Below, one piece after another: positions 1 through 21,174 of a DNA stretch of 64,000 nt. Location: the NCBI GenBank assembly GCA_965203015.1, contig CBDBBM010000005.1, positions 93,631-157,630 on the forward strand, read 5' to 3'. The translations under genes and the position numbers were made by a program. The notes below the pieces were generated by a model, which did not search any database, was not told where the DNA came from, and saw only the letters and a program-made list of their open reading frames with translations. The number at the start of each line of letters is the position of its first letter. The stretch's first letter is position 1. The stretch is from Chloroflexota bacterium. Its GTDB lineage: Bacteria > Chloroflexota > UBA11872 > VXNJ01.

Positions 1-385
1 TTCTCCGCGGGGTGCGGTTGGGAGCCGGACCCGGTTTTTGCGGCACTCGACGGCGGCTGGGTCGGCTTTCAGTTTCCGGCACGGTCATTCCTCCCGCGCC
101 GGCCCATGGCCCGCCCGGAACGGACGCTTTTCGCGGTTGCAGGTCACAACGGCGGTGCCGTTCCACGGATCGACTTCCATTGTTCCATCCTCAATTTCCG
201 ACTCGATTGCGGTTGCATCAATGAACGCTGGCCAGCATATCGGACATTACGCAATGCGCAGCGCAAAACAGACTGCGCGCGGCATTTGAAAACCAGGCGT
301 GACCGCGCCGCATCCGTGGACACTATCCGCCCATTCAAACGGGACCGGGGATTGCAGCATTTATCAATAATGGTCAAACTGCAAA

Positions 386-1544
386 TTGAATGGATGTTTG
401 ACCGTGATTGACTGGCTCGGCATAGACCACCTGCTTGATCTCTCCGGGACCGAAGCCCTCGCGGGTTTCCTTACGCCGCTGGCGGTGTTTGCGGTGTTTT
501 TTCTGGCCCAGATAATCCTGCCCGCGCGCCGGGTCCCCGGTTACGTCGTTAACCCCGACACCGGCGAGCCGCGCAATTACCGGCTGAACGGCCTGCTTGT
601 TTTCGGAATCGCCGTGGTCGTTTGGGCGTTTGAACTTACCGGCATGCCGCGCGACTGGTTCTACCGCTCGGCAATTTACGCGGTGGCCGGCGGGACGGTG
701 TTCTGCCTGCTTTTTTCGTTGTTTGCAGTCTTCAGTCAGCCGCAGGGCGAGATCAAGAACTCGTTCCTGGCCTTGTGGGAAGGACGCGCTCTCGAGCTGC
801 CCTTCTTCAACGAACGCTTCGACGTGAAGATGTACCTCTACGTGGTCGGCGGGACGATGCTCGTGCTCAACGCCCTTTCCGGCGCGGCCTACCACTACCA
901 GCTCTTCGGCGATGATTCCAACCCCGGCGTTTTTCTCTACACGGCATTCTTCACGTTCTACATATTCGATTACATGGTCTTTGAGCGAGTCCAGCTCTAC
1001 ACCTACGACCTGATCCATGAGATGCTCGGTTTCAAGCTCATCTGGGGCGGGCTGATCATCTACGGGCTGGCTTTACATACTGCCGCTCTGGGGCATGGCG
1101 GTCCATCCCGATCCCGGGTTTTCGACGGCCTGGACTTACCTCTGGCTGATCGGGGCCACGGTCCTGTTTCTGTTTGGCTGGAGTTTTTCCCGCGGCGGGA
1201 ACCTGCAGAAGTACTGGTTCAAACGCTGGCCGGAGAGAAAGTTCCTGGGCATCATCGAGCCCGAGTACATCCAGGCCGGCGACCGCAGGATCCTGTGCAG
1301 CGGATTCTGGGGCCTCGCTCGCCATTTCAATTACCTGGGCGAGGGAATCATCTGCATTTCGATCGGCCTGGTGTTCGGGCATTTTGCCAACCCCTGGGCC
1401 TGGACCTACCTGGTATTCATAGTGTCTCTGTTCACCTGGCGTCAGCGCCTGGACGATAAGGTCTGCGCCGAGAAATACGGCGCGCAGAAATGGGCCGAAT
1501 ACCAGGCAAGGGTCAAGTACCGGATTATCCCGGGCATCTACTAG
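386..1544 (+). pseudogene. Sterol reductase family protein (ERG4/ERG24/7-dehydrocholesterol reductase-like), frameshifted copy
   Basis: ORF 386..1459 (N-terminal part) and ORF 1095..1544 (C-terminal part) both align residue by residue to the intact downstream paralog (1748..2887). The shift maps to the GGG run at 1064-1066: the paralog reads tac-ggc-tgg (YGW), here tac-ggg-ctgg. The C-terminal part carries LCSGFWGLARHFNYLGE and the ...YRIIPGIY tail typical of sterol reductases. Likely true start is the GTG at 404 (VIDWLG, matching MTDWLG of the paralog). Could also be a homopolymer sequencing error. Confidence 0.6.
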
Positions 1545-1747
1545 CGAGACCCCCGATGAATCGGATGGGGCCATGGTCGGGGCCGGCCAAGGGTTGACGT
1601 CGAGTTCGTGCCGCGCATCTACCTGCGCCCGCATCGGTCAAGGGCTCCGGAATTGGATTCGGTCTACTGCCAAGGTGCCTACCCGGGGTCAGTTTGGCGC
1701 GGGCCTGGAGGGCAAACGCTGCTTGGGTGGGATCGGCCTGGTGATCC

Positions 1748-2887
1748 GTGACCGATTGGCTCGGAATAGGCCACCTGCTTGAGCTTTCCGCGCCGGAGGC
1801 CGCAGCCGGATTCTTCACGCCACTGGCGATCTTCGCCGCGTTTTTCCTGGCCCAGTTGGTCCTCCCGGGCGTACGCGTGCCCGGTTACGTCGTCGACTCA
1901 CGCACCGGGCAGACCCGCAGGTACCGCCTGAACGGCATCCTGGTGTTTGCCATCGCCCTGGCGGTTTGGGCGTTGGAACTGACCGGCATGCCGCGCGACT
2001 GGTTCTACAGGTCCTCGATCTTCGCCGTGGCCGGCGGGACGGTCTTTACGGCGATCTTTACCGCCATCGCGGTTCTCACCCGGCCGGCGGATTCGTCAAA
2101 AGGGCTGCTGGAGGCGCTGTGGGTGGGGCGGGTCCGGGAACTGTCCTTCTTCAACCACCGCCTGGACCTGAAGATGTATTTCTATGTCGTCGGCGGGACG
2201 ATGCTGTCGCTCAACGCCCTCTCCGGGGCCGCCTACCACCACGGGCGATTCGGCGACGCGTTCAATCCCGGAGTTTTCCTGTACGCGGGGTTCCTGACGT
2301 TCTACGTGCTGGACTACTTCGTATTCGAACGGGTCCAGCTCTACACCTTCGATGTGATCCACGAAAAGCTGGGATTCAAGATGTTCTGGGGCGGCATGGT
2401 GGTCTTCGGGTGGTTGTTCATCCTCCCTTTGTGGGGCATGGCCGCGTACCCGAACCCCGAATTCCCATCACCGTGGGGGTATGCATGGCTTGTCGGGGCG
2501 CCCGTGTTGTACCTGATCGGAAACGGGATTGCGCGGGTCACCAACATGCAGAAATACACGTTCAAGCGCTGGCCTGAACGCAAATTCCTTGGAATCTTCG
2601 AGCCCGAGTACATCCAGGCCGGCGACCGCAAGATCCTCTGCAGTGGATTCTGGGGCCTGGCCCGCCACCTAAATTACCTGGGTGAGCTGCTGATGTCCAT
2701 AGCGATCGTGCTGGTATTTGGCTATTTCACCAACCCCTGGGCGTGGATCTATCTTGTCTACGTGGTGACGCTGTTTACCATTCGCCAACGTGAAGACGAT
2801 CGCTACTGCGCCGCCAAGTACGGTGAAGAAAAATGGGCCGAGTACCAGGCGAGGGTGCGCTACCGGATCATTCCGGGAATCTACTGA
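1748..2887 (+). CDS. Sterol reductase family protein (ERG4/ERG24/7-DHCR-like), intact paralog
   Basis: 379 aa polytopic membrane protein. C-terminal LCSGFWGLARHLNYLGE motif and DDRYCAAKYGEEKWAEYQARVRYRIIPGIY tail resemble eukaryotic DHCR7/TM7SF2/LBR C-termini (from memory). GTG start. Confidence 0.75.
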   Translation: MTDWLGIGHLLELSAPEAAAGFFTPLAIFAAFFLAQLVLPGVRVPGYVVDSRTGQTRRYRLNGILVFAIALAVWALELTGMPRDWFYRSSIFAVAGGTVFTAIFTAIAVLTRPADSSKGLLEALWVGRVRELSFFNHRLDLKMYFYVVGGTMLSLNALSGAAYHHGRFGDAFNPGVFLYAGFLTFYVLDYFVFERVQLYTFDVIHEKLGFKMFWGGMVVFGWLFILPLWGMAAYPNPEFPSPWGYAWLVGAPVLYLIGNGIARVTNMQKYTFKRWPERKFLGIFEPEYIQAGDRKILCSGFWGLARHLNYLGELLMSIAIVLVFGYFTNPWAWIYLVYVVTLFTIRQREDDRYCAAKYGEEKWAEYQARVRYRIIPGIY

Positions 2888-2893
2888 AGGAAC

Positions 2894-3283
2894 TCAATAA
2901 ACCCTGGCGTCGGGACGTCCGGATTCGATGCCTTGATCGGCAAACACCTCGCTGTTCAAATCAAACGGCGGGACATGGACAAGGAAAAGATCCACCCGGT
3001 CATCGCTGGCGTTGCGGTAGCTGAACCACTCGTTGCGCTGGACCACCAGCAGGTCCAGCGGGCTTAGCTGGATTTGTTCTCCATTGACCTCGAATGTCGG
3101 CTTACCACGGAAACATATGTAAAGTTTGTCGCTCCGGGTCGATTTCGCCGCGGCATGGGATGCTCCCGGCGCGACCTCGATATGGGCGACTGAAGCCGAA
3201 GCCAGGAAGTGAGGAATCAAGTCCCTCACGCCAAGGCCTCCGAAGTCAACTGGGGTCACGCTAAGGCTGCTGACGTATTTCAT
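2894..3283 (-). CDS. Cupin domain protein
   Basis: 129 aa. Small beta-barrel-like sequence with His-containing cupin-like motifs. Family-level call only. Confidence 0.45.
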   Translation of the reverse strand: MKYVSSLSVTPVDFGGLGVRDLIPHFLASASVAHIEVAPGASHAAAKSTRSDKLYICFRGKPTFEVNGEQIQLSPLDLLVVQRNEWFSYRNASDDRVDLFLVHVPPFDLNSEVFADQGIESGRPDARVY

Positions 3284-3507
3284 CGCCCATCCCTGAAGTC
3301 CGAATCAACATGACGGCACCGCCGCGCCGATATGGCCGGAGACTTGGCGCAAGCGCGCCGCCGCAAATCCAACTCTCCGGCGCCGGGCTTTTGTTCCAAA
3401 TCAATTGGGCGGCTGCCAAATGGCGCCGAAAGTTGAGTTTGCCCAATTGTTCAGCAACGCGGTTCCACGGACAATCGAGAGCCTGCCCGCTTGCCGATTC
3501 GGCGAAT

Positions 3508-4992
3508 TCAGGTTCCGGTGATGATCTCCAGGACCTCCGCGTCCATTCCACGCAGCGTCTCGTCAACCGAGAGTTCTCCGAGAGCGGCTTTTTCGACCCA
3601 CCGGCTCATCGCCGGCTGGACGTCGAAGTGTTCGGGCACGACCTTGCGCGTCTCGCCGAATTGCACGTTTGCGGCGTAGGTCCGATAGGGTTCGGATTGA
3701 TAGAGGTCGTATCCTTCCATTGCGTACCGGCAAGGCATGGAGCGGTCACCCAGCACGTTGATCTCGTAGTTTGGACCGGGGGATGCGAAGTATTTGAGGG
3801 TTTCAAACACCGCATCGGGGTTCCTCGTGAGCTTCCAGGGCATGTATTTGTCGACGTAGAGCTGCATCACCCGCCGTTCGGGGCCTTGCAGCGGCGGGGC
3901 GACTTCCAGATCGTCGAAGACTGCTCCGGCGTTCGTTTCGCAGTTGCCGACGTTTCCCGGCCAAAGCTGCTGAATGGCCACCCGGCCGGCGCAGAAGGCG
4001 TGCAGGTTGGGGACCCGGGAATCGATGCCCTCCCTGGGCATAGAGCCATCCTGCAACCCGTGGCGCACGTGCTGGGCGAGCGCCATTCGGCCGGCCGGAG
4101 TGTCGTTTGACGGCTTGGTCAGGTCTTCGTTGAAGGTGCCTCCGCCGGCTTGGCGCAGCCAGTCTTCGTAGACCTGGGTATGGTGCTGGAGGTTGAATCC
4201 GGCCTGCTCGAATGTGTCGCCGTCGCGGACGGTGAGCTTCGGGGCCAGCTCGTTGAGCTCCTCCCAGGTGCCGGGTGGTTCGGGGGCTAGCCCGGCCCTT
4301 TCAAACATCGAGGGGCGAAACACCACCGAACCGCGGTAGTTCGTGCGGTATGGAATACCCATGACATGGCCGTCGTAGGAAACGTCTTCGCGAACGCCCG
4401 GATAGAAGTCCTCCCATTCGTCCCAGGAGGCCACGTAATCGTCCAGTTCAAGCACCTGGCCTTTCGCCGCAAGCACGGGAGTCCACAACCCGCCGCCGTA
4501 CCAGATGTCAGGCGCACCCTGGCCGGCCGGCGTCCTGGGCCAGACGGTGATCCCGGTCAGCTTGAAGAATTCCACGATCGCGGCCCGCACGGCACCCTCA
4601 CCGGCGGGATTTAGGCCGCCGAACCGGAACGAAATCTCAACTCCATCGAACGGTCGCGGTGGCGGTGCGATCGGGCGTACCGGGGCCACGACTTCTTCGG
4701 GCGGCAGATCCGATGGCGATTGGCCATCCCTCCATGCGAACACGCTCCGCTCGGTGCCGCCAGAAAACGCGTCGACCGGTTCAGGAGCCGTCCGACCGCA
4801 CGCGGACAACAGGGCCAACGAACCCAACCCGATCACCGACGCAATCGCGGCGCGGCGCGAGAGCAGGCGGCCGCCCAGGACACAGCGCCCGGACGATTGC
4901 GTCCCCGCACGGGAACTGGCCGTCCGTCCCATTCCATCAAACCGCATGCAATATCCCCTGAATTTTTCACGCAACGAAGGCACCGTCTCCAC
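3508..4992 (-). CDS. ABC transporter extracellular solute-binding protein (family 1), TAT/lipoprotein signal
   Basis: N-terminal LSRRAAIASVIGLGSLALLSACG combines a twin-arginine motif with a lipobox Cys. Mature part is SBP-like. Start uncertain (M at 4992, 4947 or 4932). No cognate permeases adjacent. Confidence 0.65.
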   Translation of the reverse strand: METVPSLREKFRGYCMRFDGMGRTASSRAGTQSSGRCVLGGRLLSRRAAIASVIGLGSLALLSACGRTAPEPVDAFSGGTERSVFAWRDGQSPSDLPPEEVVAPVRPIAPPPRPFDGVEISFRFGGLNPAGEGAVRAAIVEFFKLTGITVWPRTPAGQGAPDIWYGGGLWTPVLAAKGQVLELDDYVASWDEWEDFYPGVREDVSYDGHVMGIPYRTNYRGSVVFRPSMFERAGLAPEPPGTWEELNELAPKLTVRDGDTFEQAGFNLQHHTQVYEDWLRQAGGGTFNEDLTKPSNDTPAGRMALAQHVRHGLQDGSMPREGIDSRVPNLHAFCAGRVAIQQLWPGNVGNCETNAGAVFDDLEVAPPLQGPERRVMQLYVDKYMPWKLTRNPDAVFETLKYFASPGPNYEINVLGDRSMPCRYAMEGYDLYQSEPYRTYAANVQFGETRKVVPEHFDVQPAMSRWVEKAALGELSVDETLRGMDAEVLEIITGT

Positions 4993-5142
4993 CCAGCGGC
5001 GGAAATTGCGGCAGCGTCAGGCAACGCTGCAAGGACATCGCCGCCGCGATCGAGGCCGCGCCGCCAATACGTGCCATTCCAGTCCGTCCAGTGCCTGGCG
5101 GAGGACTTGGAACCGGCACCATCCATAACAGGGTGACGCGGC

Positions 5143-5166
5143 AACATATGCACTTTACCATATGTT
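5143..5166. promoter_or_regulatory. Inverted repeat AACATATG-n8-CATATGTT in AT-rich divergent intergenic region (SBP gene vs vWA gene)
   Basis: Seen in sequence. Confidence 0.35.
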
Positions 5167-5541
5167 TTATGTGTTCCATTGCGTAAAGCTCTACACATTC
5201 TTCGTATCCTTGGCAATTCCCATAATCTGTTTTTCGCGACTCGCGCTTTATGTATCATGTTGCTACCTGCGCTGTCGTGACGTTGGGTCCGCGAAGCGCC
5301 GGTCTTTTCATATGGCCCCCTCTGGCGAGGGTGTCATGAAATGCCAGGTTTCACCGGATCGTTCAGCGATTTCTTGACTGGATTCGTCAGTGGACATATG
5401 CGACCCGATTGATGGTGAAACGAATATGTGGGTTCCATGCCGGGATCCCGTTGTCGAAAACGACGATCACGCGGGCGCCGAATCCACCATCGCACGTCCC
5501 ACCGGGACGGCCACCGAAACAACACAAAGGACTGCGGACAA

Positions 5542-7407
5542 ATGAAGCAGCGCGTCAAAAAGATTTGGGCAAGCAAGTCGGTTGCGATTCCCCTGGCTAC
5601 GGTTCTGGCCGCAACCATCGCGGTGGTTGTCTTTTCGACCTTCAACCGCGCCGGCGAAACCGCAGTTGAGCATCGGTTGACGCCGAGCGAGGCCATGGAA
5701 TTGGGCGCGCCGCCGGCACCGGCGCCCGTCAGTCCGCGGGAAGTCGAGCGGCGGCCGGAGCCGCGACCGGTTCCATCGGCCCAGGTCGAAGCTGACGCCA
5801 GGATCCTGGCCGGGCAGCTCGAAAACGTATCCATCGGTGGAGATGATTGGGCGGCCAGTTTCCAGCAAGCCGGCTCGACTTCCCGGTGGAGGGCACCCGC
5901 CGCGCCGGCCCAAGGATCCGGCTCCAAATCTCGGCGAACTGCCCCGGCCGCCGGGTCAAGCGCAGGGACCGCGACCGCAACTCCGGCGGCGACCAACTTT
6001 CGCGACTATCTGCGCACCCGCGCGGTCTCGACCGATGCTGATGCGGTTTCCACCTTCAGCCTGGACACGGATCGCACGTCCTTCCAGCTGGCGCTGAACT
6101 GGGTCAACTCCGGATATGCCGTAGAGCCGGATTCGGTACGTGCCGAGGAGTGGATCAACGCATTCGACTACCAATACGATCAACCGCTGCGCCGTGACAG
6201 CTTCGCCGTTACCAGCGCGTTGGTTGAACACCCGCTCAGGCAAGGCCAGTACCTGGCCAGATTGGCATTTCAAGCGCCCAAGATCGAAGACGATTCGCCG
6301 ATCAACGTGACCCTGGTCATGGACGCTTCGGGGTCAATGGGCGAAGGTAACCGTATCGCCATCGCCCACGCCGCCGCGGAGGCCATCCGCCGCAGCCTCA
6401 GGCCGCAGGACCGCATCGCGGTCGTGCAGTTCTCCAACGAGGTGATCAGCGAGCTGACGGTCGAGCATGCCGACCCCAGCGCCTATCAAGTGATCAGCGC
6501 CATTGAAGCGCTGCAGCCGCGCAATATGACCAATGTTCAGGCCGGACTCGACCTCGGGGTGCGGCTGGCCGATCAGGCCCGGCGCGAGCGACCCGACGCG
6601 TACAACTACTTGATCCTGTTCTCAGACGGTGTGGCCAACGTCGATGCCACCGATCCGTTCGGAATACTGGAGAGCGTTGGCGGGGATGCGGGCGACAACC
6701 CGCTGCGGCTCATCACAATCGGGGTCGGGGTCGAGAACTTCAACGATTACCTGCTCGAGCAGCTTGCCCAGCACGGCAACGGCTGGTACCGCTACCTTGC
6801 CGACGTTGAGCAGGCCCGCACCACGTTTGCGCGCGACAACTGGCTGGCGATCTCGATTCCGTTTGCCGACCAAGCGCGGGCCCAGGTCAGCTGGGACGAG
6901 GACGCGGTGCGGTCTTGGCGGCTGATCGGTTATGAAAACCGGATTGCTGACGATGCCGCATTTACCCAGGCCCGGCGCGAGTTCGCCGAAATCCCGGCCG
7001 GGTCCGCCACGACCGCCTTCTATGAGATCGAACTGGTGCGAACACCTCGGCCAGGTCAACGGCTGGGTGAAGTGGAGCTCCGGTGGAACACTCCGCTGTC
7101 GGGCGCGTCCAACCGGCAGCACGCGGCGATATTGGCCAATCCCGGCGGTGAGCGCCAAGACTCGGATGCGCTGCTGCGTTTCGGAGCAATCGTTGCTCTG
7201 GCTTCCGACCGCTACAGCAGCCTGCCGGATTCAAGTGCTGCAAACAGGCAGGTTTCGTCCGAGTTGGCGGCACTGCGTGACGAATTGCGCTACCTGGAAA
7301 ACCAACTCGGCGGGTCAAATGCGTACGCTGATTTCAAGTCCGTGCTCGGGCACCTTGCGGCGCTGCCGGCGTACAGCGAGTCGGCGCGCTCGGGATACAG
7401 TCCCTGA
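5542..7407 (+). CDS. von Willebrand factor type A domain protein, YfbK/DUF3520-like, N-terminal membrane anchor
   Basis: MKQRVKKIWASKSVAIPLATVLAATIAVVVF transmembrane anchor, Pro-rich linker, then LALNWVNSGYAVEPDSVRAEEWINAFDYQY followed by the MIDAS motif DASGSMGEGNRIA. Start taken at the ATG at 5542 inside longer ORF 5428..7407. Confidence 0.7.
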   Translation: MKQRVKKIWASKSVAIPLATVLAATIAVVVFSTFNRAGETAVEHRLTPSEAMELGAPPAPAPVSPREVERRPEPRPVPSAQVEADARILAGQLENVSIGGDDWAASFQQAGSTSRWRAPAAPAQGSGSKSRRTAPAAGSSAGTATATPAATNFRDYLRTRAVSTDADAVSTFSLDTDRTSFQLALNWVNSGYAVEPDSVRAEEWINAFDYQYDQPLRRDSFAVTSALVEHPLRQGQYLARLAFQAPKIEDDSPINVTLVMDASGSMGEGNRIAIAHAAAEAIRRSLRPQDRIAVVQFSNEVISELTVEHADPSAYQVISAIEALQPRNMTNVQAGLDLGVRLADQARRERPDAYNYLILFSDGVANVDATDPFGILESVGGDAGDNPLRLITIGVGVENFNDYLLEQLAQHGNGWYRYLADVEQARTTFARDNWLAISIPFADQARAQVSWDEDAVRSWRLIGYENRIADDAAFTQARREFAEIPAGSATTAFYEIELVRTPRPGQRLGEVELRWNTPLSGASNRQHAAILANPGGERQDSDALLRFGAIVALASDRYSSLPDSSAANRQVSSELAALRDELRYLENQLGGSNAYADFKSVLGHLAALPAYSESARSGYSP

Positions 7408-8171
7408 ACGGTAGTTAACCCACCGGCGAGCACTCCCCGGCGGCCGCGGCTTCCAGGGAGGCCGGCAAGCCGGCCCAATGCTGCCGTCGCCTTACGGGAA
7501 GGGGCCTGATTGGCAATCCCGGCCAGGTTCCCCGACACCGAAAACCTATCGGCATCTCGGGAAAAATTCAATCCGCGGTGCGGAACTGCGCAGCCATTTG
7601 ATCGGTCGACTCGGGCGGTTCGATGCGTGCCGCAGGCGACTCGGACAACCAAACCCGAGCGTACTTCGGGGCCCGCGGGCGCAAACGGGCAACACCAATG
7701 ATTTGTGTAAACGCGCAACGGCCGACCGCGTGCAGCCGCCGCGGTCGTGCCCGGGGGGCTCATAGATCGGCGCGAACGATTCATGGGGGTTCGATTGGCC
7801 CGCCCCGTTACCGGGATTGACCGCCCGGTAAGAACGCGGCCGGACGATTCGACGCGGCAAAACCCCGCCCTGCACACGCCCGCGCGCCCAACATGCCGCA
7901 AGCCGAGGCGACGGTTTGGCACGAAACGTTCGCAATTCGAAATCCCACGTTACCGTTGATTGCAGCACCGCGACGGTGGCGCCGGCCAAAAATTGGCTAT
8001 CGGATCGCGATCGACCGATTGCGGGACGCCCTTCGTGCCCGCCGCCGGCCTCGACACGGGCCTGCCAGAAAAAACCAGCGAATCATTCGGGTGGCCCTCC
8101 GACCACATCCTCTTTCCAGCATCCGCGCAATAGCGTGGCTGCTGGTAGCCACTGTCCGCGCCCAGATTCGC

Positions 8172-8900
8172 ATGAGTCGGCGAAATATCGAGGATTTCGT
8201 CATGGTCATTACGCACCCGGTTTACACGCTGGTCTTCATGGCGGTGTTCGTTCACGTTGGGCGCACTGATCTTGCCCCCTACGCGATCGTCGCACCGCTG
8301 CTCATGGGCGTTTTCTCAATGGCGATTTTTGTGGCCAGCGAACTGGTGGCGCGCGAACGAGACGAGCAGGTCCTTGAGATTTCGGTGATCTGTCCGGCGC
8401 CATTTTGGGTGGTCATATTTGCCCGGATATTGGTAATCACGGCGATTTCGTTGGTCGGCGTCATCGAAAGTTGGGCGATTGTCCGGTTCGTTTTCGGCGT
8501 GAGCATTGAAATCCACCACGCCTGGTTATTCGCCGCGGTGATGACATTGACCGCGCTCGCGTCCGCGGGAACCGCTCTGATCGCCGCCGCTTTTTTCTGT
8601 CTGGCGTACGAGGTCAGGACATTCCAAAACTCGATCACCTTCCCGCTGTTCCTGTTTTCCGGAATCCTGGTTCCCGTTTCGGTTTTTCCAGACTGGCTGG
8701 AGCCGATAAGCCGAATCGTGTTCCTTTACTGGTCGGCAAGCCTGTTGCGGGACGCCATGCAACCCGGCCTACCACAAGGTGTATTGCTGGCTCTATTTGC
8801 GCTGCTGGGTCTGGGGTTCGGGTCGGTCCTTTTGGGAGGCGTATTGATCTCGCGAATGGTCGACCACCTCAGACGGGAGGGACGATTGGGGATCCTGTGA
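8172..8900 (+). CDS. ABC-2 type transporter permease
   Basis: Six predicted TM helices. Overlaps the next permease by GTGA. Start uncertain (the ORF opens at 7893 but upstream residues are not membrane-like). ATG at 8172. Confidence 0.6.
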   Translation: MSRRNIEDFVMVITHPVYTLVFMAVFVHVGRTDLAPYAIVAPLLMGVFSMAIFVASELVARERDEQVLEISVICPAPFWVVIFARILVITAISLVGVIESWAIVRFVFGVSIEIHHAWLFAAVMTLTALASAGTALIAAAFFCLAYEVRTFQNSITFPLFLFSGILVPVSVFPDWLEPISRIVFLYWSASLLRDAMQPGLPQGVLLALFALLGLGFGSVLLGGVLISRMVDHLRREGRLGIL

Positions 8901-9685
8901 ACGCCTTGCGCGCCTTCCGCTACAGCCTTTTCGTAGGGTCCAGGGATTTTTCCAACTTTTGGAACTGGAAAACCTGGTTCGCCGGTTGGATGGTCCAGAT
9001 GTTTGCTCAGGCGGCGTTCTTTTCACTTTTTGCCAGATTGTTCGATTCGCCCGAGCAGGAGCAATTCCTGTTGATCGGAAATGCGGTCGCGGTTGGAGCC
9101 GTTGCGGTCGCCTGGACCATTCCATCCATCACATGGGATCGAACTTTCGGCACATACCCACTGCTGGTGATCGCCCCGGCGAGCCTGGTTCCGGCAGTAA
9201 TCGGTCGTACCGCAATCTGGCTCGCAGCGGGCGCAGGGACAACGCTGGTGACATTTGCAATCATGGGATTCGTATTCGGCCTCGACTTGCCATGGCCCAA
9301 CACCCTTTTGATCGTGCCGCTGGTCATATTGACCTCAGCCAGCACCTATTGCATTTCGTTATTCCTGGGCACCCTGGCGATGCGGCAGCCCAGGGCGCGA
9401 CTATTGGTCCTCAATTTCGTTCTGATCGTTGCCAGGGCGTTCTGCGGAGTGAGCGTTCCGGTAGCGTTTTGGCCGGACCCCGTTCAAATCGTCGTCAGTT
9501 TCCTTCCGATAACGCACGGCCTGCGGGCGATTCGGCTGCTGCTTGCGGAAGCGCCGGCCGGTGAAATCCTGCACGCCGCTTCACTTGAGGCGGCGGTGGC
9601 GGTTGGCTGGGTCGTTTTGGCCGTCTTGCTCATGGATCGAATGGCCAATGCCGGCCGGAAGGACGGTTCAATTGAATTTGCGTGA
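8897..9685 (+). CDS. ABC-2 type transporter permease
   Basis: 262 aa, multi-TM, start N-terminus typical of ABC-2 permeases. GTG start overlapping the upstream stop. Confidence 0.65.
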   Translation: MNALRAFRYSLFVGSRDFSNFWNWKTWFAGWMVQMFAQAAFFSLFARLFDSPEQEQFLLIGNAVAVGAVAVAWTIPSITWDRTFGTYPLLVIAPASLVPAVIGRTAIWLAAGAGTTLVTFAIMGFVFGLDLPWPNTLLIVPLVILTSASTYCISLFLGTLAMRQPRARLLVLNFVLIVARAFCGVSVPVAFWPDPVQIVVSFLPITHGLRAIRLLLAEAPAGEILHAASLEAAVAVGWVVLAVLLMDRMANAGRKDGSIEFA

Positions 9686-9712
9686 ATCACGTGTAACCGG
9701 TCCGGGTGCGCC

Positions 9713-10660
9713 TTGATCGCCGTTGCCACAGAGGACCTGCGCCGGATCTACCGGACCAGGGACGCAAATCCAGACGTCGTCGCCCTCGACGGAGTCTCGA
9801 TCGGAGTCGAGGAAGGCGAAATTCACGGACTGCTGGGCCCTAACGGGGCCGGCAAGACGACCCTTGTCAAGGTGTTGTCCACCGTGCTGTTGCCTACAAG
9901 CGGCAAGGCCTCGATCCTCGGGCACGACGTGGTCCACGAAACCAAGATTGTGCGCCGCCTGATCGGCGTGGTGTTGGGGGGCGACCGCGGTCTGTATTGG
10001 AGATTGACAGGACGCGAAAACCTGGAATATTGGGCCGCACTCTACAACGTCCCCGCGGGCAAGACCAGGGAGAGGGTGACCGAGTTACTGGGAGTTGTTG
10101 GTCTCGCAGATCGCGCCGATCACCTGGTGGAAGGGTATTCGCGCGGAATGAAGCAGCGGCTCCATCTCGCAAGGGGTCTGGTGGCCGATCCCTTGGTGGT
10201 GTTCCTCGATGAACCCACCACGGGAATGGATCCGATCGCGTCGCTCGAATTCAGGACCTTCGCCAAGGACCTCAGATCGCAGGGGAAAACGGTTCTGCTG
10301 ACGACGCACGACATGGCCGAGGCCGAGGCTGTATGCGACCGTGTTTCGCTCATTGATCGCGGCAAAATCCTCGCGGTCGAAACCCCAAACTCGCTGGGCA
10401 AGCTGATTGCCGCCCATGAACGGATCGACTTTCAGGGAACCGCGGATGGTTTGGTGGACAAGCTGAAGTCGGTGCCGGGAGTTGCCGCGGTGAAGGCATT
10501 GCCGAACGGCGGACAGCGCGTTGAGATTGCGAACGAATCGGCGTCCCGGCAAGTCCTGGAGGCTCTCGTCGGATCTGGCATTACGTCGATTAACACATCG
10601 CGGCCGAGCCTCGAGGAGGTCTACCTGCACGTGGTCGGGGATGGGCTTCCCGGTCAATGA
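9713..10660 (+). CDS. ABC transporter ATP-binding protein
   Basis: Walker A GPNGAGKTT, signature YSRGMKQRL, Walker B VVFLDEPTTGMD, H-loop TTHDM. Confidence 0.9.
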   Translation: MIAVATEDLRRIYRTRDANPDVVALDGVSIGVEEGEIHGLLGPNGAGKTTLVKVLSTVLLPTSGKASILGHDVVHETKIVRRLIGVVLGGDRGLYWRLTGRENLEYWAALYNVPAGKTRERVTELLGVVGLADRADHLVEGYSRGMKQRLHLARGLVADPLVVFLDEPTTGMDPIASLEFRTFAKDLRSQGKTVLLTTHDMAEAEAVCDRVSLIDRGKILAVETPNSLGKLIAAHERIDFQGTADGLVDKLKSVPGVAAVKALPNGGQRVEIANESASRQVLEALVGSGITSINTSRPSLEEVYLHVVGDGLPGQ

Positions 10661-10771
10661 CGCGGGCCCGCCGCGACGCGGCCGGCACAGATCCTGATTG
10701 AGCGGTCCTGGCTGTGTGACAGCCGGACTAAGTCACACCACTCGAGGGGACACGCCCGCCAGGGATGTGGA

Positions 10772-11500
10772 TCAGGGTTGCAGACGTTGGCCGCGACCTA
10801 CTGACACGGCCGATCCTTCGGCCAAAAAGACCGACGCAGGGGGATTTTCCAGGCACGCACCGAACTCGCGACCATACAAATCCCGGGCATCCAGATTCCA
10901 GGAAGCCACGGTCGCCGGAGCGACACGCCAGCGGGGACGCTCTACGCGGTATTCCACCGTCGCGCCGTCGCGCTGGGTCACGTACCCCCAATGGTGTTCG
11001 GCGACAAAAGAAACATCGGAGTCCAAATCGGGCACCTTTGCCGGGGCGGTCGCTTCGACGGCCAGGTTACTCCAACGTTTCCCTGAACGCCATTCGTAGC
11101 GGGCAAAACCGGGGCCCAGCTCATGCCTCATTGGCATGGTGTGATAGTTCTCGTTGTACACCGATCGCGCGACCATGGTCACGGCGCGCCTGGGAACTAC
11201 TTCCTTGATGAATACGACTCCCCTGCGCAATTCGCCGCCAACTTCGCGGGTCACATAAAAGCGAAGGTTGAGCTCTTCGAAATTGCGGTGCAGCGGGACC
11301 GGTATTCCCAACAGGCGGGTGTTGAGGAACCGGAAGGCCACGATGCTGGCAAAGCACTTGTTCCTCCACAAGCTGACCTCGGTCCCCTCCGGAACAAATC
11401 GCTCGAGATAGCCGGGGTCGACTTCGAAGTTGACCATCGCCAGATCGCGCCATTCGGCGGTAAGGAAAGGTCGGAATCGTCGGACTTCGCGCGCCGTCAT
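10772..11500 (-). CDS. DUF2071 (YqjF-like) family protein
   Basis: LTAEWRDLAMVNFEVDPGYLERFVPEG...FEELNLRFYV matches the DUF2071 N-terminal pattern from memory. Confidence 0.5.
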   Translation of the reverse strand: MTAREVRRFRPFLTAEWRDLAMVNFEVDPGYLERFVPEGTEVSLWRNKCFASIVAFRFLNTRLLGIPVPLHRNFEELNLRFYVTREVGGELRRGVVFIKEVVPRRAVTMVARSVYNENYHTMPMRHELGPGFARYEWRSGKRWSNLAVEATAPAKVPDLDSDVSFVAEHHWGYVTQRDGATVEYRVERPRWRVAPATVASWNLDARDLYGREFGACLENPPASVFLAEGSAVSVGRGQRLQP

Positions 11501-11856
11501 CTCAGATCTTCCCCGGTTCTTCCCGCAACTGCGCGATTCCAGCTTTGCTCGATTCCAAACGGATCACTTTCACGCTCGCCGACGTCAGGTCGGTCCAAGC
11601 GTTCCGCGTGCGTTCGGTCGGGGCTCCGAAGCTGGACCAGCCAATCATCGGAAGCGACAGGCCCCTACTCGGGACAATCTCCGCGTTGCCGGGTCGATTA
11701 CCGACACGGTTGGGGGTAGGACACCGGCGGCCGGGCGCGCGGCTCGACCGTATCCAAGGAGTCTCTTTAGCGGTATTTGTGCCCAGTGTCCGAATAGCTG
11801 CCGCGTTTTGCGGGACCGATCGAAATTTACCCCAATCGGCTTGCGCGCCAGATCGA

Positions 11857-13362
11857 TCAAGGGCTGCCGGCAAAATACACCTCGACTGATGCGCTGACAA
11901 TCAGCGCGCCGTCAACCACGCTCTCTTCCCTGACTTCGACGCGGAGTATTCCGGGCGAACCGATTTCCCGCAAATCGACCGATTTGGTGAAAGTGCCCGG
12001 TCCACCGTATTCGCCCTCAACCGAAATGTAGCTTTCGCCGACGACCGCTCCGGTCCTGTCGTAAATGCGGTAGGTGAGGTTCTTCTCAAATGGCAGGGAA
12101 CTGATCCGTCCACGCAATTCCAGAGTGCCAATTACGGTCGAACCGCTCGCCGGGCGCTCCAGGACCAGCTCGGCGACGGGTTCGCGGCTCGTTCTTCCGT
12201 CGGTCAGCGGGGCGGCTCGCAGTATCACCGCCACGCTCGTGCGGACCGGTCCCATACCGCCGGGTCCATTTGCATCGATGATTTCGATTCGACCCGGCTC
12301 ATCTCTGGCGGCGAAGAAGTCGATCGGTGCCGCGAACTCAGTGGGGTAGTCAGCTTCGAATCCGGCCGCGACCGGGATCGTTCCGGTGCCTATCACTCCC
12401 CCGCGGGCGTCATAGACAAGGTAAGTAAGCGAACCAGATCCCGGCGTCGTGCTGGCGGTACCGCGGACATGGATCCCGTTTGCCACCGTCTCGCCCGCCA
12501 GCGGCGCGTCGATCACCAGGGCCTGCCGGGGCAGGAGCTGGTTCCCGCTGAAAGAGTAGGTCCGGGTGACTTTCAGGCTGGGACAGCAAAGCCCGTCGCC
12601 CGGACGGTGCACGACCGTCTCGGCAGTGATCTCACCACCCGCGACGGTGAGGCCGTCAACGCGAACCCGGTCGCCCAGGAAGGCGCGCGCCGCCTGGTGC
12701 GGCACGCCGTCGCGGTCGAGGAAGGCGACCAGATGAATGAACGTGCCGCTCCCGCCCCCGGAGGTGAAGGCGACGACCGCTGCGTCGGTGTACCCGTCGG
12801 CGTCCAGGTCACCGAATGCGACGCCGTCGCTGACTATCCCGGCGTATTCCCGAATGCCTGGTTCCCGCTCGTCCGCGATGGAGGCCTCGCCGTTTTCAAG
12901 TCGAACCGGGGTGCCGTCCTCGCCCAGCAGCGGCAGACGGAATTCGGCGTTGCGCAGCTGCCCGCGGGTGATTCGCCGCGTTGCCCGGCCGGGGTCGGGC
13001 GCTTCCCACGCGAAGAGTTCATCGCTGAGCCGTTTCTGGATCCCTGCCGGGCCGTTAACCCAGGTGTGCCGGCCATCGCTAAACCCCGTCCAGTTGTCGG
13101 CCTTGCGCCAGATGAGCCGGCCGTTGGCGGTGGCCTGCCGGGTCACCCCGGTTCGCGGATCGTGACGTTCGTTTTCGAGGCACCCGCCAACCACGTCCGG
13201 GATCATGTCGCGCAGGGCCGCAAACCCCAATACAAAGCTGCAGTCCTGGGCAATAAGCGGCCTTGCGGACAGCAGCAGCGCGACCAGGGCGAACAGGAGC
13301 GGCAGGCCCACGCCGAACCCTCGCCGCGCGTTGCCCGGGCCAATGGGTGGAACCATGCCCAT
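11857..13362 (-). CDS. Secreted protein with FG-GAP-like repeat and tandem Ig-like (Gmad2/GerM-like) domains
   Basis: Signal-peptide-like MGMVPPIG...LLFALVALLLSARPLIAQD, then FGDLDADGYTDAAVV (FG-GAP/VCBS-like Ca-binding motif), then two C-terminal beta-rich repeats. Start chosen at the internal Met of ORF 11857..13545. Confidence 0.5.
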   Translation of the reverse strand: MGMVPPIGPGNARRGFGVGLPLLFALVALLLSARPLIAQDCSFVLGFAALRDMIPDVVGGCLENERHDPRTGVTRQATANGRLIWRKADNWTGFSDGRHTWVNGPAGIQKRLSDELFAWEAPDPGRATRRITRGQLRNAEFRLPLLGEDGTPVRLENGEASIADEREPGIREYAGIVSDGVAFGDLDADGYTDAAVVAFTSGGGSGTFIHLVAFLDRDGVPHQAARAFLGDRVRVDGLTVAGGEITAETVVHRPGDGLCCPSLKVTRTYSFSGNQLLPRQALVIDAPLAGETVANGIHVRGTASTTPGSGSLTYLVYDARGGVIGTGTIPVAAGFEADYPTEFAAPIDFFAARDEPGRIEIIDANGPGGMGPVRTSVAVILRAAPLTDGRTSREPVAELVLERPASGSTVIGTLELRGRISSLPFEKNLTYRIYDRTGAVVGESYISVEGEYGGPGTFTKSVDLREIGSPGILRVEVREESVVDGALIVSASVEVYFAGSP

Positions 13363-13552
13363 CCCCGGCTGGCCTCCTCCCGTCAGTCGGCCGGCGCAGC
13401 TGCGCGCCGGTGGTGGGTCCAATTCACCGGTTACCCGGGAGATTTGGCGCCGCCGGGCGGGCGGCAGCCGGGGATCGCAGGCAGGTCGATGCGGCCCGAA
13501 TAAGGCGGCGGGCGCACGGGTCGCGGCCGCCCGACCGGGCCGCACGCGCTAC

Positions 13553-13873
13553 CTAAGCACCTGGTACCCGGTAATCGACCGCTATATCGCCGGCCCGGTC
13601 CATGGTCTCGGGCGTAATGAGGACAACCGTTCCGATTTGGACCGCGCCCGCTTTTGCAATCTCCATCGAAACCGCCGCGGCCGACTCGTCATCGGGCAGG
13701 TCGGCGATGATCACCAGGTCGTTTGGTCCGAATGCATAGTAGAACACCTCCAGGTTGCCGCCCAGTTTTTCGATCATGGCCGCAAACATCGCTCGGCGGC
13801 CGGTTCCGCCTTCACGCTGCAGCCCTTCGATCCCGGACGCCGTGTAACCGGCATTGAACATGAACTTCGGCAT
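13553..13873 (-). CDS. GYD domain protein
   Basis: MPKFMFNAGYTASGIEG...EVFYYAFGPNDLVIIADLPDDESAAAV is a classic GYD-family sequence. Confidence 0.65.
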   Translation of the reverse strand: MPKFMFNAGYTASGIEGLQREGGTGRRAMFAAMIEKLGGNLEVFYYAFGPNDLVIIADLPDDESAAAVSMEIAKAGAVQIGTVVLITPETMDRAGDIAVDYRVPGA

Positions 13874-14265
13874 CGTCTCAATCCTTCCCTCGCGATACCT
13901 GTGCAGACATTGAAACACCCCGGGCCCAGTGGCCCGGTGAATGTCACGGGGTCAGCGCAGCGTCCGCCCCGCCCGACGGTGCGCGATGCAGGTCATTGAC
14001 CGGTGGGTTCTTGGCGGGCGCCGAAAGAGATCGGTGCGCGTGGTCGACGCGCCGGCCGGCCCGAGGGCGGCGGCCGGGGACCGCTTTGAATCCCGCGCCG
14101 GCGCCGGCCACCGATTCGGAAGGATGGGGCACCGCTCGCCGGGCCGGGTTCGGGCCCCCGCCTCCGCATGCATGATCCACGTCCGCTCCGCCCCACGTCC
14201 GGACGGGTACCACCCGGTTCGCGAAGGCACCCTCCGCATCCGGCTGCCCCGCGGAGGGCCTGCGC

Positions 14266-15441
14266 CTACGCGGGCGTCCTGGCCGGCGGCTGGCTCCTGC
14301 GCAGCGGCTGCAGTTTCCGGTACGTGGCGCACCGCCAGATCCATTCAGCCGGTCCGTACAGGAATCGGCTCAACCACAGCTGCGACCACCAGATCTGCAA
14401 CCCCCAGACCGCCGCCACGAACACCAGGACCGCGGCCCGATTGACGATTTCGGCCTCGCCAAGCCAGACGGTGAGAATGAGCACGCCCAGGATCGTTTGG
14501 CTCAGGTAATTGGTCAACGCGAGCCGGCCGACTGCGCAGAGCATCTGCTTGGCCCGCGAATCCGGGCGGTTGCTCCACAGCACGATCAGGCTCAGGTAGC
14601 CAAGGGACGCCGGGATCGTGCCGACGGTATTCGGAATCTGGCCGATGAACGCCACGCCCGCGTCGTAATCGTTGGCGGCGGTGACGAGGACGCCGACCGC
14701 GGCCAGTCCGAGACCGACCGGCAACCCGACCGCGACCACCGCCCGGTAGCGGCCGGCCGGCCAGGTGCCGCTGAGGAAGCCGGTTCGAAACAGCCCCGCG
14801 CCCAGGAGCATCATTCCCAGCGCGCGCGGGATGTAGGCCAGGAGCGCCAGACCGGCAAGGTCCTCGTTTTCTGCGGACGTCTCACCGGGGGTCCAGATGC
14901 CATCCAGGGGCACGCCGGATGAATCGGCATACGCCTGGGCCAGCAGCGCCAGGGGGACCGAGAGCGCAAAGACCGCAATTCCGGCCACTATCAGGGCCCG
15001 GTCGCTCAGTTTGCGGGCAAATATCAGGATGACCGAGGAACCGGCGTAGACCATCAGGATGTCGCCTTCCCAAAGCGCGAAATGAAGGACGCCGATACCC
15101 AGCAGCAGCGCGTTTCGCCACAGATACAGGCCCAGCGCGCGCCGGCCCCTGCTGGCGGCCCGGTCGACGAACAGGATCATCCCGGCGCCGAAGAGCAGCG
15201 AGAAAAGGCCCATGAACTTCTGGTCGACGAAGATCTCGCCGAGGATGCCAACCGCCCAGTCCAGCACCGATTCCGACCCTGCGGCGCTGAGGTTCAGATA
15301 GGCCGGCGTATCAAACCTGAACGAGACCGCGTTCATCAGCAGGATCCCGAGCACCGCCACGCCGCGGATCAGGTCCAGGCTGGAAATCCGCCTCGATTCG
15401 CGGACCGGGCCGGTCCCGGGCGTTTGCTGGTTAGCCGTCAC
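14266..15441 (-). CDS. DUF418 (YeiB-like) family membrane protein
   Basis: SLDLIRGVAVLGILLMN N-terminal motif and about 10 TM helices. Confidence 0.6.
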   Translation of the reverse strand: MTANQQTPGTGPVRESRRISSLDLIRGVAVLGILLMNAVSFRFDTPAYLNLSAAGSESVLDWAVGILGEIFVDQKFMGLFSLLFGAGMILFVDRAASRGRRALGLYLWRNALLLGIGVLHFALWEGDILMVYAGSSVILIFARKLSDRALIVAGIAVFALSVPLALLAQAYADSSGVPLDGIWTPGETSAENEDLAGLALLAYIPRALGMMLLGAGLFRTGFLSGTWPAGRYRAVVAVGLPVGLGLAAVGVLVTAANDYDAGVAFIGQIPNTVGTIPASLGYLSLIVLWSNRPDSRAKQMLCAVGRLALTNYLSQTILGVLILTVWLGEAEIVNRAAVLVFVAAVWGLQIWWSQLWLSRFLYGPAEWIWRCATYRKLQPLRRSQPPARTPA

Positions 15442-15662
15442 GCATCCCCCGGGCAGCTGCCACTGGTGCGCGACCGCCGCGCAATACGACGATCATGTTA
15501 CCTGCCCGGAAACGCGGGCAACCCGCCGGGTGACCTTTCGGCAAAGGAGAAATCAGGCGCGACCCTTTCGCCGTCGCGGCCGCCCCGTGCAGGCTCCGCT
15601 GCCCGCTTGGCCGCAAACCCGATCGGGCGGCAGCGGCATGCCGAAACCAGGCGCCGGAGAAC

Positions 15663-21157: not shown

Positions 21158-21174
21158 AATCGGTTGACCCGATT
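21158..21174. terminator. Short hairpin AATCGG-ttgac-CCGATT between convergent adh and TIR genes
   Basis: 6 bp stem seen in sequence. Overlaps the TIR gene stop codon. Weak. Confidence 0.2.

Follow-up and report, generated by a model that had tools for sequence, protein, structure and literature searches.

The 64-kb stretch of Chloroflexota DNA analyzed here (64,000 nucleotides, hereafter the window) carries two adjacent genes on the forward strand which, judged from sequence and modelled fold, are homologues of the ERG4/ERG24-family sterol reductases. The upstream gene (404..1544) runs from a GTG at 404 to a TAG at 1542–1544. It stays in frame for 221 codons, after which one G must be removed from a GGG run at 1064..1066 (TACGG[G]CTGG), a single-base insertion that shifts the frame where relatives have GG (TAC GGC TGG, encoding Y-G-W). 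With one G removed, the frame is open through to the C-terminal ...YRIIPGIY and comprises 379 codons. Because homologues begin M/V-I-D-W-L-G, the true start is most likely GTG 404 rather than TTG 386. Downstream of the insertion, a residual ORF from the ORF list (1095..1544, forward strand) encodes the C-terminal 149 residues of this copy; it begins at a native and conserved methionine, Met231 (where its first 20 residues fall on the corrected protein), and contains the signature motif together with the NADPH-binding one, N309, E313, and R346 lying inside it. The downstream gene (1748..2887, forward strand; GTG at 1748, TGA at 2885–2887) is intact and encodes an unbroken protein of 379 aa. In the 203-bp spacer between the copies (1545..1747), a simple scan predicted neither promoter nor terminator, the scan of the locus being uninformative, and RNA genes and tRNAs looked for in the window were not found. 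GC3 is 0.81 in both copies, as in host genes.

A preliminary description of this DNA had recognized a tandem pair of sterol-reductase paralogues, one of them interrupted, whose full-length alignment calls for a +1 frame change at the GGG run. Both observations hold: after correction the two 379-aa proteins align over 379 of 379 residues without a gap (69% identity, 548 bits), and the direction of the change, one base skipped, is as claimed. The C-terminal motifs quoted there, ILCSGFWGLARH[F/L]NYLGE and YRIIPGIY, are present in both copies. We take the PGI[YF] ending to resemble that of DHCR7.

Comparison With Solved Sterol Reductases

The Pfam family ERG4_ERG24 (PF01222, cutoff 27 bits) matched the corrected upstream translation with 119 bits and the downstream protein with 124.8 bits. 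The match spans the protein and scores four to five times higher than the weak secondary matches to DUF1295 (22–30 bits) and ICMT (17 bits, under the ICMT cutoff), so the family named in the preliminary description is not displaced by a better-matching one. NCBIfam has no model for either protein, its sole match being ICMT at 18 bits. As to database names, many homologues are called “DUF1295 domain-containing protein” at NCBI, while the JGI name, given by similarity alone, is “delta14-sterol reductase.”

In a sequence search, the best solved relative of the downstream copy was the delta14-sterol reductase MaSR1 of Methylotuvimicrobium alcaliphilum (4QUV; E 3e-34, residues 26–379). The AF2 model (pTM 0.74; pLDDT 66, a middling confidence) contains 9–10 long helices, and in Foldseek 4QUV was its sole match at E < 0.001 (TM-score 0.71, E 4e-10). 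MaSR1 and its eukaryotic homologues ERG24, TM7SF2, and LBR have the Pfam family in common with the window proteins, and the alignment reaches the C-terminal end. At the other end, the PF01222 match begins at profile position 74–77 of 432, leaving positions 1–73 unmatched, and the MaSR1 alignment begins at its residue 74, both window proteins being N-terminally shorter by about 48 residues. Rather than the full-length family architecture (ten TM segments, about 430 profile positions), the two proteins have an N-terminally shortened variant of it.

For MaSR1, Y241 and D363 have been proposed as the catalytic Tyr/Asp pair (PMC12489058), and the NADPH-binding residues N359 and R395 correspond to N547 and R583 of LBR (PMC4951196). 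Y241, N359, and R395 are equivalent to Y186, N309, and R346 here, which every one of the 90 clade members keeps; in place of D363 all of them have Glu (E313), a conservative but non-canonical change that leaves the partner Tyr (Y186) in place. Among the residues invariant in the 90 members are N309, R346, W302, R306, H307, Y310, G312, D350, K357, and Y358. The window proteins are like MaSR1 in predicted fold, catalytic Tyr, NADPH-binding Asn and Arg, and the W-G-x-A-R-H-x-N-Y-x-G signature, but differ from it in overall identity (∼34%), in the shorter N terminus and the Glu for Asp, and in a genome region without an adjacent CYP51 or cyclase.

The Conserved Pair and the Extra G

Both copies are intact in the nearest relative (locus L001, 96.6% nucleotide identity), where the upstream gene lies at 4659–5798 and its product is 98.7% identical. 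The pair is intact too in the more distant L002, L003, and L004, its conservation reaching relatives of about 82% amino acid identity. The interrupted upstream copy is under strong purifying selection without relaxation: its omega was 0.106, 0.068, and 0.074, not above that of its intact downstream neighbour (0.115, 0.089, and 0.100), and on the branch to L001 (0.106) the 5′ and 3′ parts were similar.

The two copies are separated by a dS of about 1.2. Mean identity to 79 single-copy homologues from other phyla is 75% for the upstream and 71% for the downstream copy, which places the interrupted gene nearer to the homologues of other phyla than to its own neighbour (69%). At sites conserved in at least 95% of the rest of the clade, the downstream copy carries eight private substitutions and the upstream copy two; the downstream-specific changes include W259N, G264A/V, and G314L/F, the last adjoining the predicted catalytic Glu. 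Not one of 100 bootstraps grouped the two copies exclusively with each other, in trees that were neighbour-joining only and in which long-branch attraction could pull the fast-evolving downstream copy rootward. These alignments and trees indicate that the pair is old and conserved, that its copies are not mutual closest relatives, and that the upstream copy is the more canonical, better conserved member, the downstream one being the more derived paralogue.

Relative to L001, which has GG at the site and an intact ORF, the extra G is the sole indel within the upstream gene and, over the 7.6 kb that the window and L001 share, the only one to break a frame, all others being intergenic or multiples of three. 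Neither the GG nor the GGN version of the exact DNA pattern across the site had a match in JGI metagenomes, and an exact-protein look-up (V or M start; C-terminal ORF) returned no independent copies of the frameshifted allele. A pseudogene would combine a lesion with relaxed constraint or further lesions; here there is one lesion, and omega to the nearest relative is 0.106. Because one extra G lies in a three-base run and other damage is absent, it is either an error of assembly or consensus calling or else a mutation too recent to have left any other trace. With GG in the nearest relative and an interruption of a single base, a sequencing artefact is a possible source. A freshly made duplicate in decay does not explain the interruption.

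Distribution and Sterol-Gene Context

The preliminary description had called the family uncommon in bacteria. This needs qualifying, as at least 562 relatives of the 379-aa clade occur among GTDB species representatives and bacterial ERG24 homologues, the present sponge-symbiont set among them, have been published (PMC9531527 and PMC8237579). The clade is tight, all members having 379 aa, and is found in Chloroflexota, Dadabacteria, Acidobacteriota, Gemmatimonadota, Binatia, Nitrospirota, and others. Its Dadabacteria member is 85% identical to that of Nitrospirales, 84% to that of Acidobacteria, and 79% to that of Dehalococcoidia, and the gene tree interleaves phyla, at odds with taxonomy. Near-identical length, cross-phylum identity well in excess of species divergence, and conflict between tree and taxonomy, the marks of the horizontally shared sponge-symbiont ERG24 set, were all found. 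Many of the related MAG names denote sponge bins (COS, RHO, SB06, jk18x, Spongia_Bin9, Ca. Palauibacter); these names and the literature, rather than sample metadata, suggest a sponge habitat for the present genome. Beyond the clade’s own relatives (48 and 42%), the next matches are 35–42% identical and include proteins of Monosiga and Corallochytrium.

Within the 64-kb window no further gene for sterols, hopanoids, or squalene turned up, in agreement with the preliminary description, which had noted no other sterol or hopanoid pathway gene there. Of 39 ORFs of the window scanned with Pfam, none matched a cyclase, squalene synthase, P450, or methyltransferase, and none of the Dadabacteria sterol-cluster genes had a homologue in the window. 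The flanks of L001–L004 contain no cyclase, CYP51, methyltransferase, or squalene genes, and CYP51 and oxidosqualene cyclase co-occur neither within the window nor in these flanks. A search for oxidosqualene/squalene-hopene cyclases in the window and all 83 loci gave no match, a weak negative given the unverified human lanosterol synthase query. Several frequent neighbour clusters were considered as cyclases and rejected; from their translations, read without a family search, they were judged to encode, among other things, a histidine kinase, a molybdopterin oxidoreductase, pyruvate carboxylase, and HtpG.

Most of the 80 related loci have no sterol neighbours. In Dadabacteria-type loci and in the Dehalococcoidia loci L047 and L078, a single-copy orthologue is flanked by a Sterol_MT_C methyltransferase and a CYP51-like P450 (divergent, and adjoining the orthologue, in the Dadabacteria-type loci only), as well as by a Rieske/KshA_C oxygenase and a transporter of the MMPL type that bears a sterol-sensing domain. 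Among known systems, the Dadabacteria steroid pathway genes (Hoshino and Gaucher, 2021, PNAS 118:e2101276118) are comparable: Dadabacteria-type loci hold an orthologue that is 72–76% identical, present in single copy and placed amid sterol methyltransferase, P450, Rieske oxygenase, and transporter genes, whereas the window lineage belongs to Chloroflexota and has two copies and none of those neighbours.

Kelly et al. (2022, Microbiome 10:164; PMC9531527) report an enrichment of ERG24 (TM7SF2, K00222) among Ircinia symbiont MAGs from 10 phyla, the genes being “scattered ... or in doublets” or lying in ERG24-CYP51-LSS operons; they infer horizontal transfer, give an omega of 0.13, and have an alignment of 1167 nt. 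Our genes are like theirs in length class, low omega, horizontal transfer, and doublets, in the phyla concerned (including Dehalococcoidia, Binatia, Nitrospiria, Gemmatimonadetes, and Acidobacteriae), and in the link to sponges, the closest loci here including jk18x, COS, RHO, and SB06 sponge bins. The focus there is on the ERG24-CYP51-LSS operon, however, which occurs in 0 of the 80 loci closest to the window. Non-sister paralogues of which one is systematically derived were not found in the sections of the study drawn on here.

Discussion

We consider it probable that the two genes, conserved as an array, encode integral-membrane sterol C=C reductases of the ERG4/ERG24 family that depend on NADPH and belong to a horizontally spread clade. 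The analysis shows that the proteins fall in this family, have its fold, and keep its residues, that the pair is conserved and under selection, and that the lesion consists of one base; the substrate, the bond reduced, a division of labour between the copies, and a sponge habitat for this genome are inferred. Both proteins belong to a compact 379-aa bacterial clade that would have passed horizontally among many phyla, largely of sponge dwellers. By analogy with MaSR1 and ERG24, NADPH would bind in a cytoplasm-facing pocket of the C-terminal half (N309, R346, K357, Y358), the sterol would come in from the bilayer, and the Y186/E313 pair would protonate the double bond, with hydride supplied by NADPH. 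The most likely target would be the delta14 bond left by 14-alpha-demethylation, and delta14-sterol reductase (EC 1.3.1.70, K00222) is the candidate specificity suggested by similarity-based names. The upstream gene would be this lineage’s copy of a widely shared enzyme, and the downstream gene either a paralogue that is older and has diverged or one acquired separately, with another double bond or another sterol as its possible target. Two copies under selection hint at two activities. DHCR7 (delta7) and ERG4 (delta24(28)), which have their family in common with the window proteins, are paralogues that reduce different sterol double bonds; both arose within eukaryotes, as inferred by Hoshino and Gaucher. 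The comparisons made here showed no particular affinity of the window proteins to either.

For the interruption itself, we put at about one in two the chance that the extra G arose in assembly or consensus building, or reflects a minor strain variant in the consensus, and that the organism has two intact reductase genes. One base is inserted in a G run that reads GG in the nearest relative, whose ORF is unbroken, no further lesion accompanies it, omega to that relative is low in the 5′ and 3′ parts alike, and the interrupted copy is the most conserved of the pair. Against an error speak the shortness of a three-G run as a site of homopolymer error, the long intact ORFs elsewhere in the window (an 897-aa PDH E1, a 784-aa Lon, a 669-aa PBP), and the fact that every other indel relative to L001 avoids coding frames; the assembly is therefore not indel-prone in general. 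A real but very recent frameshift, by which the strain has just lost or split its canonical reductase and now depends on the diverged paralogue downstream, is a serious contender, if somewhat short of an even chance. The given sequence does read GGG, the intact downstream paralogue under purifying selection would make the loss tolerable, and the ORF from the native Met231 still codes for the entire cofactor-binding half; yet a second lesion is absent, dN/dS is not raised, the gene is intact in four of four related genomes, and an N-terminal product would bear 131 out-of-frame residues. The preliminary description had proposed, next to an artefact, a recent tandem duplicate whose redundant upstream copy is decaying into a pseudogene, as tandem arrangement on one strand, equal length, and 69% gapless identity might suggest. 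This we regard as very improbable in view of the dS of ∼1.2, a pair kept intact in L001–L004, the low omega, sister copies in none of the 100 bootstraps, and an interrupted copy that is closer to the homologues of other phyla and has two private changes against eight. Programmed +1 ribosomal frameshifting or transcriptional slippage restoring the full-length protein is scarcely credible: the lesion does require exactly a +1 shift at the G run, but the nearest relatives encode the protein in a single frame, the site has no zero-frame stop or rare codon, the zero frame being open for 131 codons, and three Gs are too short a run for efficient slippage. It was rejected on these grounds.

As to function, it is unlikely that the proteins are non-sterol members of the ICMT/DUF1295/SRD5A superfamily that reduce a hopanoid, carotenoid, or polyprenol double bond or act as methyltransferases. 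The weak DUF1295 and ICMT matches and the NCBI names point that way, as do the clade-wide Asp-to-Glu change and the lack of sterol neighbours at most loci, the window’s included. However, the far higher ERG4_ERG24 score covers the whole protein, 4QUV is the only significant fold match, and conserved neighbourhoods, where present, are sterol-specific (Sterol_MT_C, CYP51-like P450, KshA_C Rieske, sterol-sensing domain). An extension of the sterol-reductase reading, to which we give a small but slightly better chance than to the non-sterol one, is that the lineage makes no sterols itself and uses two reductases of differing specificity, for example delta14 or delta7 versus side-chain delta24(28), for remodelling sterols taken from the sponge it lives in. 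A new specificity would then have evolved in the derived downstream copy (W259N, G264A/V, G314L/F), and the 379-aa clade at large would represent a “host-sterol tailoring” gene traded horizontally among sponge symbionts.

Bacterial sterol-modifying enzymes bear on the reading of sterane biomarkers and on how symbionts handle host lipids. To this the locus adds a small point, namely a shared reductase accompanied by a second, diverged paralogue under selection in one Chloroflexota lineage. The published picture of ERG24-type reductases enriched and horizontally exchanged among sponge-associated bacteria is unchanged, and the interrupted gene is a one-base matter rather than a new biological phenomenon. 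Host-sterol tailoring, if true, would bear on who makes the unusual sponge sterols used as biomarkers. In the sarasinoside cluster of a Melophlus symbiont, msbC is a membrane sterol reductase.

Results and Discussion

According to the ORF list and the raw sequence, the plus strand carries an ORF at 386-1459, which is continued in another frame by an ORF at 1095-1544, and an intact gene of 379 codons at 1748-2887 (+). When one G of the GGG run at 1064-1066 is dropped (TAC GG[G] CTG G becoming TAC GGC TGG), the first two ORFs are fused to a gene of 379 codons that ends at 1544 with ...YRIIPGIY-TAG. The corrected upstream and the downstream protein align over 379 of 379 residues without a gap (69% identity, 548 bits), and both contain the motif ILCSGFWGLARH[F/L]NYLGE as well as the terminal YRIIPGIY. 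The gap-free alignment and the common motifs therefore bear out in every detail the preliminary description of a tandem pair with one interrupted copy that is realigned by a one-base correction; only the start was amended to GTG 404, the likely start since the homologues begin with M/V-I-D-W-L-G. Without correction, the upstream gene would yield a product whose first 221 residues are native and whose last 131 are out of frame, and a second ORF starting at native Met231 covers the entire C-terminal cofactor-binding part.

The assignment to the sterol reductases, also proposed in that description, was upheld by the profile search: the two proteins match Pfam ERG4_ERG24 (PF01222) with 119 and 124.8 bits (cutoff 27), DUF1295 reaches 22-30 bits, ICMT remains under its cutoff, and no NCBIfam model was found for either protein. 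The closest solved structure is MaSR1, the Δ14-sterol reductase of Methylotuvimicrobium alcaliphilum (PDB 4QUV; E 3e-34, residues 26-379). The AlphaFold model of the downstream copy (pLDDT 66, pTM 0.74) has 4QUV as its sole significant fold match (TM-score 0.71, E 4e-10), with SRD5A2 far behind. NADPH binding has been assigned to N359 and R395 of MaSR1, equivalent to N547 and R583 of LBR (PMC4951196), and catalysis to Y241 and D363 of MaSR1 (PMC12489058). N359, R395, Y241, and D363 correspond here to N309, R346, Y186, and E313; the first three are unchanged in 90 of 90 members of the bacterial clade to which the pair belongs, and all 90 have Glu in place of Asp. Compared with MaSR1, the window proteins lack about 48 N-terminal residues, and the Pfam match begins at profile position 74-77. 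Given the profile scores, the matches to 4QUV, the mapped residues, and the N-terminal shortfall, both proteins truly belong to the ERG4/ERG24 family, in a subtype that is shortened at the N terminus and bears Glu.

By homology to MaSR1 and ERG24, NADPH would dock in the C-terminal pocket and the sterol would come in from the membrane, its double bond being protonated by the Tyr186/Glu313 pair and the hydride supplied by NADPH. The Δ14 bond would be the default target, and a different bond, e.g., Δ7 or the side-chain Δ24(28) bond made by methyltransferases, may be reduced by the second paralogue.

In the preliminary description, the interrupted gene was thought to be either a recent duplicate decaying into a pseudogene or a sequencing artifact. 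The tandem pair is found in the window and in four related contigs with both copies intact (L001-L004), all from one Chloroflexota lineage, in which identity among the downstream copies is 82-98%. Locus L080 has an independent pair, and the other 78 related loci have a single copy. The dS between the two copies in the window is about 1.2, and both have a host-like GC3 of 0.81. With 79 single-copy homologues of other phyla, the upstream protein shares 75% identity on average and the downstream protein 71%, compared with 69% between the two. In a neighbour-joining tree rooted with MaSR1, the upstream and downstream clades have bootstrap values of 93 and 100%, respectively, and form exclusive sisters in 0 of 100 replicates, with the caveat that a rapidly evolving branch can be placed wrongly in distance trees. 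Where the single-copy homologues are conserved to at least 95%, eight private changes are fixed in the downstream lineage (Y201F, Y220F, F255Y, W259N, G264A/V, G314L/F, A321V, F338Y), of which G314L/F adjoins the catalytic Glu, and the upstream lineage has two. Taken together, the distribution of the pair, the dS, the identities, the tree, and the private changes indicate that the interrupted upstream gene is the canonical copy and the intact downstream gene a derived paralogue or a second acquisition. The reading as a recent, decaying duplicate is thus wrong. The lesion amounts to a single base. The independent pair of the same clade in L080 (8001-10369; Dehalococcoidia MAG OY761846.1) includes a second copy that has a basal position in the clade and is only 58% identical to the downstream protein of the window.

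The nearest public contig, L001 (ENA ERZ23495205 scaffold_309), is 96.6% identical over window positions 1-7619 and carries an unbroken copy of each gene. Relative to L001, the upstream gene has a single indel, the extra G at 1064, and the remaining five indels over 7.6 kb are intergenic or 3 bases long. Elsewhere in the window long ORFs are intact, so the assembly is not generally rich in indels. Nei-Gojobori estimates of ω for the corrected upstream copy are 0.106 against L001 (14 synonymous and 5 non-synonymous differences), 0.068 against L004, and 0.074 against L002, with similar behaviour of the segments 5' and 3' of the frameshift; the corresponding values for the downstream copy are 0.115, 0.089, and 0.100. 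Since the upstream ω is low, like that of the intact copy, there is no sign of relaxed constraint in these three comparisons. The extra G therefore stems either from an error in the assembly or consensus, or from a mutation that is too recent for other traces to have formed. Exact-protein look-ups with the window's reductase products gave no match in the exact-match collection, and the DNA pattern of the frameshift site was not found in JGI metagenomes. Programmed frameshifting at the GGG is very unlikely, because the relatives use a single frame and no stop interrupts the zero frame over 131 codons.

A set of 5.8 billion proteins contains more than 1000 matches, the best 120 of them being nearly all exactly 379 residues long and 70-98% identical. 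In a library of 50%-identity representatives, the clade is covered, in essence, by a single full-length representative; the nearest sequences beyond it have 48 and 42% identity, followed by ordinary family members at 35-42%, including proteins of Monosiga and Corallochytrium. Among GTDB species genomes there are at least 562 relatives, the best 80 of which belong to Chloroflexota/Dehalococcoidia/SAR202, Dadabacteria (filed under Thermodesulfobacteriota), Acidobacteriota, Gemmatimonadota, Binatia, Nitrospirales, Nitrospinota, Latescibacterota, Rhodospirillales, and Opitutales. Cross-phylum identities of up to 79-85% and the interleaving of phyla in the tree point to a spread of the clade by horizontal transfer. 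Many of the MAG names are those of sponge-microbiome bins (COS, RHO, SB06, jk18x, Spongia_Bin9, Ca. Palauibacter), and a sponge origin of the window itself is only inferred. If the genome is without a cyclase, the reductases would work on sterols of the host.

The neighbourhood of the reductase is variable in most loci, except for the Dadabacteria-type loci and the Dehalococcoidia loci L047 and L078. In these, it lies beside one or two sterol methyltransferases (Sterol_MT_C), one to three GPP34-P450 fusions, a Rieske/KshA_C oxygenase, an amine-oxidase-type flavoprotein, an MMPL transporter with a sterol-sensing domain, and a LolA-like protein, and no other contextual evidence speaks as strongly for an action of the clade on sterols. 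A conserved block next to the single-copy reductase in L065, L066, L067, L069, L070, and L082 (~9200-15600), and also in L047 and L078, combines the one or two methyltransferases, the LolA-like protein, and the transporter with a DUF1302-like protein, in some loci with the Rieske/KshA_C oxygenase added, and looks like a cluster for the modification and transport of sterols. The fusions of GPP34 (Golgi phosphoprotein 3) and cytochrome P450, of about 672 residues, stand directly upstream of the reductase in one to three tandem copies (L017 3498-7716, L022 356-7427, L067 3335-7643, L070, and other Dadabacteria-type loci). The best solved relatives of their P450 part are CYP51 enzymes, at only 71 bits, and the architecture, beside sterol genes, is unusual for bacteria. 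In Acidobacteriota loci (L014 1569-2423, L021 7030-7956, L024, L028, L054), a 308-residue DUF1295 protein (146 bits), a distant member of the reductase's superfamily, is encoded on the same strand directly upstream of the reductase, so this other phylum has a two-reductase pairing of a different kind.

The family context is already published, and the feature is real and rightly called an ERG4/ERG24 pair. Kelly et al. [quoted passage not shown] The genes occur in 115 of 537 MAGs, from 10 phyla, and are "scattered ... or in doublets" or arranged in ERG24-CYP51-LSS operons, with gene trees indicating HGT and an ω of 0.13. Such a reductase, msbC, is part of the sarasinoside cluster of a Melophlus symbiont (PMC7074536), and steroid pathways have been described in 14 bacterial phyla including Dadabacteria (Hoshino and Gaucher, 2021; PNAS 118:e2101276118). 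With this published set, the window genes agree in length, taxa, transfer, and selection. The modest addition made here is that one Chloroflexota lineage pairs the shared gene with a conserved, systematically diverged partner, and that the broken-looking copy is the canonical one.

Pfam scans of 39 ORFs over the 64 kb identified transporters, a VWA protein, DUF2071, a TPP enzyme, dehydrogenases, PDH E1/E2, cytochrome c maturation proteins, Lon, and PBP, and none of these ORFs matched a cyclase, squalene synthase or epoxidase, P450, or sterol methyltransferase. Tblastn with the Dadabacteria cluster proteins was likewise empty, in agreement with the earlier remark that no other sterol genes accompany the pair within the window, and a search with an unverified lanosterol synthase sequence found no homologue there. 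A 490-residue FAD_binding_2 flavoprotein is encoded at 17565-19037 (+). This family takes in enzymes of both the fumarate reductase and the 3-ketosteroid dehydrogenase type. No other ORF of the window could conceivably have a tie to steroid metabolism.

At 21174-23152 (-), a DUF1883+TIR protein that matches the PADLOC candidate system PDC-S66 (8e-61) and ThsB-like TIR models adjoins an HTH_3 protein resembling PD-Lambda-2_B (6e-19). The region has a GC of 0.54-0.55 and a GC3 of 0.59-0.62, compared with about 0.67 and 0.8 elsewhere in the window, and is probably a horizontally acquired defence islet. The G+C content of positions 1-12000, which include the reductase pair, is 0.59-0.64 and thus lower than in most of 12001-64000 (0.66-0.75); the GC3 of the pair is host-like despite this lower G+C.
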